Position numbers and translations under genes: made by a program. The notes under the pieces were generated by a model. It worked only from the letters and a program-made list of their open reading frames with translations, was not told the DNA's origin and made no database searches. A DNA stretch of 58,900 nt from an uncultured Erysipelotrichaceae bacterium (GTDB taxonomy: Bacteria > Bacillota_I > Bacilli_A > RF39 > UBA660): assembly GCA_902780585.1 (NCBI GenBank), contig CACZGA010000003.1:1-58900 (forward strand), written 5' to 3'. Position 1 is the first letter of the stretch; the number at the start of each line of letters is the position of its first letter. Below are positions 55,464-56,732 of this stretch, piece by piece.

Positions 55464-56681
55464 TTACGAGTTCCTTAATTTCTTATTAACGTTTTGTCTT
55501 TTCTTTCTGACACTATCTATAGAATAATTTACATTTCTAGATATTTGTACATCTGTTAATCTATCACAATAATATTGTTTTAATATTTTCAATACTATCG
55601 GATCATCTTCCACTCTCACCACAATCTCATGTAACTCTTCTTCTGACATTCCTTTATAAAGTTTTGTATTCTTTTTAATAAAGTGGGAAGTGACGTATGA
55701 CAATGTTACACCTAGAAATATTGGTATAAAGAAAGACGTTTCTGTTTTAAAAGTAATTCTAGTCAATACATAATATGTGAAACTACTAAAAACAAAACAT
55801 ACCGCTACGCTTTTAAAATGAAAAGGTTTTCCAAAAGCATATTTATTAACCCAAAAAGCAACTGTTATAAATATAGCCTCAATAAAAGCATCGTTTAAAA
55901 AAGCAATTGCTATTATAACAAACATTGTAAACATGTTCCATAGTATGTAAAGAGGAATGTAGATAGCGTTTGTTATCCTTTCCTCTTTACTTTTTGTTGT
56001 TTTATTCTGTGATTTTCTTAGCAAGTCTTTTAGCAAATTTCTTGATGAAGTCAGTTTCTGCGAACCAGAATAAACTACCAAGTCCCATAAATTTTTACCT
56101 CCTTTATAAAAATACAATTTATGTATGATTATTAACACTAATAAATAATCTAAATTTAATATAATTGCTACAATAACACCATGTGTATTATTTATAGGTA
56201 CATTTCGTATACAAATACTAATTAATTGTGTTATGTTTATTATTAAAACCACACCAATATAATTTATAATATTATATTTTTTAATAGGTTTATTATTGAT
56301 TTTCAAATACAATAAACTGAAAACAAACATGTATATTGTGTCGAATAAAACAAATAAAGGTGGTAAGTTTATTTTAGTTTTTAATATTTGAAAAATCATT
56401 GCTACTACTGTGATTAATAACGAATATTTTCTCATTTTATTATTGTTTTCATTGGTTGTTATACTCATAACCACATAAACATTAACATACAACGTAATAG
56501 CATACCAAACATTTTCTAATCTCCAATATAATATAAAATCGTTTATTATATTGATTGTTCTATTGTTATAAACTATTTCAAAATAATTCCCACCTAGCAA
56601 CTTAATTATAACAACAATTAGTAGTAAAAAGTAGTAAGTCTCAATACTTCTGCTGAATAATTTATCCAAATCTTTCTTCAC
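55464..56681 (-). CDS. Multi-TM domain + AgrB-like peptidase domain + C-terminal HTH fusion protein
   Basis: GTG 56681 with AAAGGAGGTG RBS; about 6 TM segments, a linker, FGKPFHFKSVAVC (H-x6-C), and LTDVQISRNVNYSIDSVRKKR. Confidence 0.7.
   Translation of the reverse strand: MKKDLDKLFSRSIETYYFLLLIVVIIKLLGGNYFEIVYNNRTINIINDFILYWRLENVWYAITLYVNVYVVMSITTNENNNKMRKYSLLITVVAMIFQILKTKINLPPLFVLFDTIYMFVFSLLYLKINNKPIKKYNIINYIGVVLIINITQLISICIRNVPINNTHGVIVAIILNLDYLLVLIIIHKLYFYKGGKNLWDLVVYSGSQKLTSSRNLLKDLLRKSQNKTTKSKEERITNAIYIPLYILWNMFTMFVIIAIAFLNDAFIEAIFITVAFWVNKYAFGKPFHFKSVAVCFVFSSFTYYVLTRITFKTETSFFIPIFLGVTLSYVTSHFIKKNTKLYKGMSEEELHEIVVRVEDDPIVLKILKQYYCDRLTDVQISRNVNYSIDSVRKKRQNVNKKLRNS
56002..56088 (-). 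CDS. Nested out-of-frame 28-aa peptide, AgrD-like candidate
   Basis: AAAGGAGGT-8nt-ATG; MGLGSLFWFAETDFIKKFAKRLAKKITE*. Confidence 0.65.
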   Translation of the reverse strand: MGLGSLFWFAETDFIKKFAKRLAKKITE

Positions 56682-56703
56682 ATAATCACCTCCTTTCGAT
56701 ATA

Positions 56704-56732
56704 AATATATCATAATATAATAAAATAGTCAA
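56704..56732 (-). promoter_or_regulatory. Promoter of the conserved-spacer class for the agr-like gene
   Basis: TTGACT attttattatattatga TATATT; the spacer is identical to that at 23662-23678. Confidence 0.75.

Follow-up and report, generated by a model that had tools for sequence, protein, structure and literature searches.

The stretch of DNA analysed here (the window; 58,900 nucleotides (nt) at full length) is a 58.9-kb phage contig with a G+C content of 31%, which has been placed in the 1.75-Mb metagenome-assembled genome (MAG) of an uncultured Erysipelotrichaceae bacterium; this host MAG is 95% complete. The locus of interest encodes a fusion membrane protein of 405 amino acids (aa) with two transmembrane (TM) blocks and a C-terminal helix-turn-helix (HTH)-like region, and in the linker between the two blocks a second gene of only 28 codons is nested in another reading frame. 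The second TM block turned out to be homologous to AgrB, the enzyme that processes the peptide precursor AgrD in agr systems, and the nested gene is proposed to encode an AgrD-like precursor. We consider it fairly probable that the locus represents a compacted, phage-borne agr-type peptide cassette consisting of an AgrB-like enzyme and its nested precursor.

Organization of the locus

All parts of the locus lie on the minus strand. The open reading frame (ORF) of the fusion gene spans 55464..56789, and a GTG at 56681 with AAAGGAGGTGATTAT upstream yields the 405-aa protein (55464..56681), whose full length is covered by most of the homologues listed. Its ribosome binding site (RBS), AAGGAGGTG, is located at 56687..56695 and is preceded by a sigma-70-type promoter (56704..56732), which consists of TTGACT, a 17-nt spacer and TATATT, with TG before the -10 hexamer (10/12 matches). 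The upper boundary of 56732 that a first-pass annotation of this DNA had assigned to the locus falls on the -35 hexamer of this promoter. Inside the fusion gene, 8 nt before the ATG of the nested gene, there is an internal RBS, AAAGGAGGT (56097..56105); the nested gene itself (28 codons, frame +2; 56002..56088) reads MGLGSLFWFAETDFIKKFAKRLAKKITE. Both the RBS and the small ORF had been pointed out in the first-pass annotation and were found as described there. A terminator-like hairpin detected by a terminator scan (55454..55476) extends over the stop codon of the fusion gene, and further downstream lies orf81 (55147..55392), an 81-aa partner gene which probably encodes a small HTH protein.

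The protein begins with an N-terminal TM block (residues 1-190; 56112..56681), which was delimited by hydropathy and is a separate protein in bacterial loci with split genes (see below). It continues with a linker rich in Lys and Arg (residues 191-238; 55968..56111), which was recognized by alignment and hydropathy, contains the nested gene and shows the codon pattern of the other frame. The AgrB-like block (residues 224-327; 55701..56012) corresponds to positions 11-111 of the 185 positions of the Pfam AgrB profile, and the C-terminal, presumably cytoplasmic HTH region (residues 341-405; 55467..55661) resembles sigma-70 region 4 by matches that are weak throughout. The 405-aa protein with its linker and second TM block had been described correctly before, including the motif FGKPFHFKSVAVC in the second block, which carries His288 and Cys295. 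The earlier count of about six N-terminal TM segments was confirmed for five strong ones by crude hydropathy analysis; the sixth is only possible, is weaker and would lie within residues 38-87, between the first two. The second block comprises three strong TM segments. Stretches rich in Lys and Arg at residues 187-243 and 336-405 suggest, by the positive-inside rule, that the linker and the tail are cytoplasmic, which would place His288 and Cys295 at the cytoplasmic face of the membrane.

Conservation of the nested gene

DNA of homologous loci was obtained from IMG/VR (12 loci), GTDB genomes, metagenomes (20 loci) and genome searches, and all six frames were scanned for a start codon followed by Cys, Ser or Thr, four hydrophobic residues, Ala, Gly or Pro and a tail rich in Lys and Arg. 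Exactly one such peptide ORF per locus was present in 41 of 43 loci, namely in 30 fused genes and in 11 of the 13 split loci. All 41 peptide ORFs start with ATG, GTG or TTG and have an RBS-like motif upstream. The two loci without a peptide ORF are L060, whose contig ends 15 nt upstream of the AgrB gene, and the degraded locus L059, where the TM gene is truncated and a stretch of 260 nt revealed no peptide ORF; L059 was counted as a miss. Left out were loci that begin only downstream of the linker (L012, L013, L023, L031, L034), fragments (L054, L074) and duplicates of other loci (L015, L016, L017, L019, L022, L026, L028). As the loci share descent, these counts represent non-independent trials; across the 41 loci, the host proteins are between 100% and about 25-37% identical.

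A codon alignment of 18 full genes leads to the same conclusion. With a stop density of 0.104 per codon in frame +2, the longest stretch of this frame that is open in all 18 genes has 29 columns and is the nested ORF itself (the next longest has 18 columns), and GGAG is found at the column of the nested RBS in 17 of the 18 genes. Conservation of RBS and ORF among homologues, on which the first-pass annotation had made its proposal depend, is thus seen in both data sets. In the overlap, the third positions of the main frame, which correspond to first positions in the nested frame, vary less than anywhere else in the gene (entropy of 0.74; other 29-codon windows average 1.15 and do not go below 0.89), and the second positions, at which the nested frame has its wobble positions, vary the most; the difference between second and third positions is +0.12 here and at most -0.23 elsewhere. 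Pairwise amino-acid identity within the overlap averages 0.54 in the nested frame versus 0.49 in the main frame. Moreover, the peptide ORF is free-standing in the split locus L053, and in L052 it overlaps no more than the last 28 codons of the TM gene, which argues that it is an independent gene rather than a side effect of the linker sequence. Judged by its conservation, the 28-codon ORF is a real gene, which is presumably translated.

The second TM block is related to AgrB

The suggestion that the second TM block is AgrB-like was borne out by profile searches. Pfam AgrB (PF04647) matches the window protein with 25.1 bits (cut-off 23; E 1.3e-5; 26.9 bits in the genome search) and 32 of 41 aligned relatives at E<=0.01 (best 7.2e-8). 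His288 and Cys295 (HFKSVAVC; codons at 55797..55820), the putative catalytic pair, are invariant in alignments of 41 and 44 sequences, the His-x6-Cys motif is present in all 41 loci, and hhalign sets the two residues on the invariant H75 and C82 of six canonical AgrB proteins from related genomes. In AgrB of Staphylococcus aureus, this His/Cys pair constitutes the catalytic residues. Genomes of the host family also encode stand-alone short AgrB proteins of 142-162 aa, which reach 36 bits (E 5e-9) on Pfam AgrB and are similar to the window protein (E 3.1e-11), to the fused family (hhalign probability 97.5%, E 6.7e-12) and to canonical AgrB (hhalign E 1.2e-4, with R..G.H......C aligned). Because the short AgrB serves as an intermediate, the AgrB homology of the fused family is solid, and these comparisons show the fusion to be a homologue of the catalytic half of AgrB.

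The fusion family is known only from metagenomes, where 178 homologues were found at E<=1e-3; most of those listed are about 400-416 aa long and aligned end to end, and several are located on contigs of 54-61 kb. An exhaustive search yielded 502 cluster representatives at E<=1e-3. No match was obtained in the GenBank phage collection for the window DNA, the fusion protein (P0001) or split-form proteins (P0249, P0262), in IMG/VR for the single proteins P0001, P0185 and P0262, in PADLOC for the fusion locus, or in the PDB in a sequence search with the family profile (0 matches at E<=10). An identity as Acyl_transf_3, proposed by an Atlas feature search (0.76), was rejected, as the score is under the bar set by the tool itself. 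Some fusion genes are mosaics (P0001/P0004; L010/L025) which are near-identical from the linker to the C-terminus and strongly diverged in the N-terminal TM block; this indicates recombination at the domain boundary.

Proposed ring core and follower of the peptide

The window peptide is composed of an N-terminal tail of four residues, the core Ser5-LFWF, Ala10 and an amphipathic follower helix. In the 41 peptides, Met plus one to six residues (i.e. two to seven residues) precede the putative nucleophile, which is Ser in 24, Thr in 12 and Cys in five cases; the Cys cases are confined to split bacterial loci and the Thr cases to a single phage clade. Exactly four hydrophobic residues and then Gly, Ala or Pro follow the nucleophile position in 41/41 peptides, and the last residue of the core is Phe in all 30 fused forms. 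Thereafter the sequence usually continues with x-T-D-F and a Lys-rich amphipathic helix of 15 residues. The follower was amphipathic in all 23 peptides tested (helix moment of 0.45-0.72 versus 0.24-0.32 in shuffles) and carries a net charge of +1 to +6 (+1 in five of the 23). With a moment of 0.72 against a shuffle mean of 0.32, the window peptide agrees with the earlier observation of an amphipathic helix C-terminal to the ring.

AgrB is described to cut off the C-terminal follower of its substrate and to link Cys or Ser to a hydrophobic residue by a thiolactone or lactone bond (PMC11953309). The alternation of Ser, Thr and Cys at a fixed spacing from a hydrophobic residue is, as read from the aligned peptides, the signature of an AgrD-type five-residue (thio)lactone, and together with the four hydrophobic residues it lends support to the five-residue ring envisaged in the first-pass annotation. 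The canonical AgrD of the host genus (...MG-CIWVL-VDEP...) can be set beside the window peptide (...LG-SLFWF-AETD...). In addition, each of the 41 peptide genes is located directly upstream of, or inside, an AgrB-like gene.

Split bacterial loci and the origin of the overlap

Among 301 genomes of the host family, 13 carry the parts of the cassette as separate genes on the same strand. These split operons comprise a TM protein of 197-249 aa, the peptide, a short AgrB and an 81-aa HTH-like protein and are closed, where the contig reaches that far, by a LytTR protein of 243-246 aa. In two of them the LytTR matches have E-values of 1e-13 and 1e-15, and no match to Response_reg was found at E<=0.1; a LytTR protein without a match to a receiver domain fits an agr-type context without a kinase. 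The LytTR proteins of L052 (455-1192, minus strand) and L053 (519-1250, minus strand) have N-terminal parts of about 135 residues which match no receiver domain, and the LytTR proteins of the split operons may represent a kinase-independent type of regulator. L053 is flanked by csp- and mreB-like genes, and its setting therefore looks chromosomal.

The relative position of the peptide gene differs among these loci. In L053 the peptide ORF begins 3 nt past the stop codon of the TM gene, and the peptide gene of L056 is also free. The tail of the TM gene runs over the peptide gene in L052, L058 and L062, with an overlap in L052 of only the last 28 codons of the TM gene, and in the fused forms the peptide gene is fully nested. 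These stages, from free via 3'-overlapped to nested, argue that the small gene is the older one and was overgrown by the large frame, and this would also be the reason why the linker shows the codon signature of the other frame. By the same comparison, the phage fusion is a joined version of genes that stand apart in bacterial chromosomes and not an invention of the phage. Fused forms were also detected elsewhere: five other genomes of the host family have one, as do a single host-genus genome and a single genome from a different family of the class.

Canonical agrB (194-197 aa) and agrD (40 aa) genes are present in two host-genus genomes, at L039 (genome G007; 1261-2019) and L040 (genome G018; 1268-2016). 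The AgrD core is CIWVL or CIWLV, followed by D-E-P; a gene for an AgrC-like kinase is convergent, and csp and hpf-like genes adjoin. Genome G007 also contains a fused homologue on another contig.

Candidate regulators and a promoter family

The C-terminal HTH noted in the first-pass annotation is probably present, as judged by weak matches of the fusion C-terminus to phrog_36 (E 0.0014), phrog_248 (E 0.011) and TIGR02937 (E 0.0071), a Sigma70_r4 match in one of 41 relatives and weak structure-based leads in the Atlas to DUF722/Sigma70_r4/DUF1492 clusters. The same annotation had regarded the locus as a one-gene system, which does not hold, as orf81 is located directly downstream of the fusion gene in 13 of 17 loci. 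One of ten members of the orf81 family matches DUF1492 (E 3.2e-4; 21.2 bits, under the cut-off of 21.5), and the family is related to the 81-aa protein of the split operons (hhalign E 1.9e-4, probability 48%). That orf81 is a paralogue of the fusion C-terminus is not claimed, the similarity of the two being not significant (hhalign E 0.39). Apart from the fusion HTH and orf81, the locus has no candidate DNA binders, and these two would form its output side.

A promoter family of the form TTGACT-N12-TATGNTATA with a similar AT-rich spacer is represented by 11 sites in the window (5549-56732) at <=2 mismatches, versus 2.12 expected; none of 100 shuffles reached 11 sites. Four sites are exact (26861-26887, minus strand; 38005-38031, plus; 39394-39420, plus; 56706-56732, minus), of which one closely precedes the small-terminase gene and another one drives the fusion gene. 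Many phage loci have TTGACT-N12-TATGNTATA ahead of their homologue of the fusion gene as well. A phage-specific factor may lie behind the conservation of the spacer.

Genomic context in the phage

According to Pfam and PHROG searches, the late genes on the minus strand finish with a tail-fibre-like gene, a Dp-1-type holin (57748-57948, minus strand) and an Amidase_2 endolysin (56767-57642, minus strand), which is directly upstream of the fusion-gene locus. Between the endolysin stop codon and the promoter of the fusion gene, a hairpin with a T-run (56742..56768, minus strand) was recognized by eye as a likely terminator; the terminator scan did not call it because its G-C pairs are below the rule applied. 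Most of the phage loci compared have a counterpart of hairpin and T-run in the same position, and the hairpin is likely to insulate the fusion locus from the late operon. On the other side, converging plus-strand genes begin 11 nt beyond orf81. One plus-strand gene (54280-54777) encodes a 165-aa protein with a repeat segment rich in Arg, Asp, Tyr and Gly (RYDRDSYDGYGRYDRRGRDSYGRRERDSRGRYRG), which is found near the locus in most related phages at 45-85% identity.

In agreement with the first-pass annotation, to which no integrase was evident, no tyrosine or serine recombinase was found on the contig in searches with PF00589 and PF00239 only; likewise, none of ten ORFs taken from the 24-41 kb region matched a repressor-type family in Pfam. 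The phage encodes its own primase and polymerase. Taken together with the recombinase result, this means that the regulated decision, if there is any, need not be integration. In the early region (29268-30125, 33804-34124 and 34366-37979) there are genes for a PAPS-reductase-like protein, a MazG-like protein and two DNA methyltransferases and a gene with a match to the N-terminal domain of SAM synthetase only, a set which may be a DNA-modification or anti-restriction module. Finally, the window contains an exact direct repeat of 99 nt (1-99 and 58201-58299), whose second copy lies 700 nt before the contig end. A clean circular overlap of the contig was ruled out, as the regions beyond the 99 nt are unrelated (302/700 positions identical). 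Each copy is located at the 3' end of a tail-fibre-like gene, an arrangement suggestive of alternative fibre modules or of a join made during assembly.

Proposed mechanism

From the features described above we infer the following course of events, with respect to translation, cleavage site, cyclisation and export as well as to all sensing and output. In the phage, the fusion would join the first (TM) and third (short AgrB) genes of the cassette plus an HTH, with the peptide gene within the linker. The locus would be transcribed from its own sigma-70-type promoter, with a terminator between it and the lysis genes, and an independent ribosome start at the internal RBS would give rise to the 28-aa precursor. 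The C-terminal amphipathic helix could then carry the precursor to the cytoplasmic face of the membrane, where the AgrB-like block with His288 and Cys295 would cleave after Phe9 and form a five-residue lactone between Ser5 and Phe9; in relatives with Cys, a thiolactone would take its place. That the AgrB-like block cuts after Phe9 and closes the Ser5-Phe9 lactone, with the follower as anchor and leaving group and without a leader protease, is in our view rather probable. Since the N-terminal tail has only four residues, no second (leader) protease would be needed before release. The product would most likely be a diffusible signal, with a read-out via the enzyme-fused HTH and/or orf81 on the phage's own promoter family.

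A more specific version of this scheme is tentative, and we regard it as doubtful. The locus would be a kinase-free device: infected cells release a leaderless lactone, and the same membrane protein or its N-terminal block senses it from the outside, which alters the availability of the tethered HTH and of orf81. These would act on the TTGACT-N12-TATGNTATA promoters, which also head the packaging/late operon, and would thereby time late expression or lysis by infection density in a phage that apparently lacks an integrase.

Evidence against the proposed function and alternative explanations

Several observations weigh against an agr-type cassette or against parts of it. Direct hhalign comparison between the fused family and canonical AgrB (six proteins) yields a weak match (probability 8.8%, E 0.0038), and of the 185 positions of the AgrB profile only 11-111 are matched by the window protein and 9-119 by the short forms. 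The C-terminal half of AgrB (profile positions 112-185, with the conserved A-P...P) is missing, and one TM segment and the HTH are found instead; the activity could therefore differ or be lost. As for the precursor, an N-terminal amphipathic leader of about 20 residues is absent from the peptides, and to our knowledge a Thr nucleophile is not known for autoinducing peptides (AIPs). The P-x-x-P tail, described as the AgrB-binding motif (PMC3901668), was not seen in the peptides, whose tail consists of T-D-F and the Lys-rich helix. Nor does the peptide match the AgrD models of Pfam or NCBIfam; the negative result with NCBIfam carries no weight, because two canonical AgrD controls beside bona fide AgrB were also missed. 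The host MAG contains no second AgrB and no LytTR match. By these tests the fusion is not a full member of the AgrB family and the precursor not a full member of the AgrD family, but both most probably work like them.

The first-pass annotation had assigned the role of the sensor to the N-terminal TM block, which belongs to no Pfam, PHROG or PADLOC family and shows no similarity to canonical AgrB in hhalign. Comparison with AgrC from the host genus gave an E-value of 0.37, at the low power of two sequences. The divergence of the ring tracks the AgrB-like block (partial Mantel r 0.51, p 0.0002), and there is no co-variation of the ring with the N-terminal block (partial Mantel r -0.05, p 0.82). 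Without similarity to AgrC, and with a ring that does not track the N-terminal block, a sensor role of this block finds no support, and as far as AgrC similarity and ring co-variation can tell, the locus yields no candidate receptor. The correlation between ring and AgrB-like block fits a coupling of enzyme and substrate; on the other hand, it may reflect mere physical linkage and shared descent. An example of such linkage is provided by L010 and L025, whose C-terminal halves are identical and whose N-terminal blocks are 36% different.

Other functions of the locus are conceivable. The AgrB-like block might process the peptide, with the product or the helix acting as an antimicrobial or membrane-active effector (bacteriocin-like, or an accessory of lysis), the N-terminal block as exporter or immunity protein and the HTH and LytTR proteins as ordinary regulators. 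The position of the locus directly after the holin and endolysin genes would be in line with such an effector, and so would a cationic amphipathic follower with a net charge of up to +6 and an N-terminal block that is unlike any sensor and does not co-vary with the ring. Moreover, LytTR systems with a membrane protein are described to control bacteriocin genes in Streptococcus mutans (PMC6193735). However, a net charge of only +1, as in five of the 23 peptides, is low for membrane disruption, the locus has its own promoter and is set off from the lysis operon by a hairpin, the bacterial split operons adjoin housekeeping genes (csp, mreB-like) and not lysis genes, and no match to a PADLOC or bacteriocin-type family was found. 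We thus consider an effector function unlikely.

The small protein might also remain unprocessed and be a membrane-associated regulatory subunit which binds the large protein and modulates the HTH output or the release of orf81, similar to the small proteins of some sensor kinases. The conserved amphipathic helix, the obligatory co-expression and a truncated AgrB block whose catalysis is possibly lost would agree with this. Yet the invariance of His and Cys in 41/41 loci argues for retained catalysis, and the alternation of Cys, Ser and Thr at fixed spacing is the behaviour of a nucleophile rather than of a binding interface, so that an unprocessed subunit appears distinctly unlikely. Finally, the nested ORF might not be translated at all, its conservation being due to selection on the main-frame linker or to -1 frameshifting that leads to a truncated N-terminal protein. 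It is true that the main-frame linker is conserved too (identity of 0.49), but in the overlap the codon positions follow the pattern of the nested frame, a start codon with an RBS-like motif upstream is retained in all 41 loci, and the peptide gene is free of the TM gene in L053 and L056. Furthermore, the spacer between RBS and ATG varies among loci, and no common slippery heptamer was seen by eye. This makes an untranslated ORF highly improbable.

Implications and relation to known systems

If the chemistry proposed above holds, it would widen agr-type signalling by a minimal, short AgrB enzyme, by a leaderless precursor in which the membrane-anchoring helix has changed sides relative to the core, by ring closure on Thr and by an HTH/LytTR context without a kinase. 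It would also constitute a second and very different case of agr in phages after phiCDHM1, in a family of gut phages of about 56-59 kb in which no tyrosine or serine recombinase was found. In the literature, searched at the level of titles and abstracts, we found no published description of an AgrB that is short or fused to an HTH, of an agrD nested in another gene, or of an AIP led by Thr. Apart from any function, the locus offers an unusually clear natural series for the birth of overlapping genes, with the small gene free-standing, 3'-overlapped and nested after fusion. The peptide gene, the key gene of the system, is overlooked by automatic annotation.

Both the locus and the agr system of Bacillota (AgrB/AgrD/AgrC/AgrA) possess an AgrB-family cysteine-peptidase block in the membrane, with a spacing of seven residues from His to Cys, and an adjacent small precursor, in which a C-terminal follower comes after a five-residue hydrophobic core led by Cys or Ser; the bacterial split version also shares a LytTR regulator. 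In contrast to agr, the AgrB block comprises only about 110 N-terminal profile positions, the precursor has almost no leader, carries its amphipathic helix after and not before the core and may use Thr as nucleophile, and neither a histidine kinase nor a receiver domain is present. In addition, a TM block and an HTH are joined to the phage enzyme, whose gene also contains the overprinted precursor gene. Phage genes of AgrB and AgrD type evidently derived from the host lineage, with no response regulator, have been described as agr3 of the Clostridioides difficile phage phiCDHM1 (PMC3901668). According to that description, phiCDHM1 has separate genes for a canonical AgrD (45 aa, with P-x-x-P), an AgrB of 197 aa and an AgrC kinase (PMC3901668), whereas the locus analysed here combines a fused enzyme with a nested precursor gene and has no kinase.

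The split operons resemble LytTR regulatory systems (HdrRM/BrsRM) in that a LytTR protein without a match to a receiver domain is paired with membrane proteins and no kinase is involved, which corresponds to the minimal scheme of these systems, a regulator and a membrane protein; as described in PMC6193735, these systems comprise neither an AgrB-type enzyme nor a peptide gene. The phage version differs from them also in having no LytTR protein. With arbitrium (AimP/AimR) and other RRNPP systems the locus has in common that a phage encodes a short peptide together with a DNA-binding protein and that this peptide could report infection density. The peptides of those systems are linear, secreted via Sec and re-imported to a cytoplasmic TPR receptor, whereas the peptide considered here lacks a signal sequence and probably owes a cyclic form to a membrane enzyme, with a DNA-binding domain that is membrane-tethered. 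As in overprinted viral genes, a second protein is encoded in another frame of a larger gene and synonymous variation is reduced in the overlap. In contrast to these, the nested gene appears to be the older one, over which the large frame was extended and fused stepwise.

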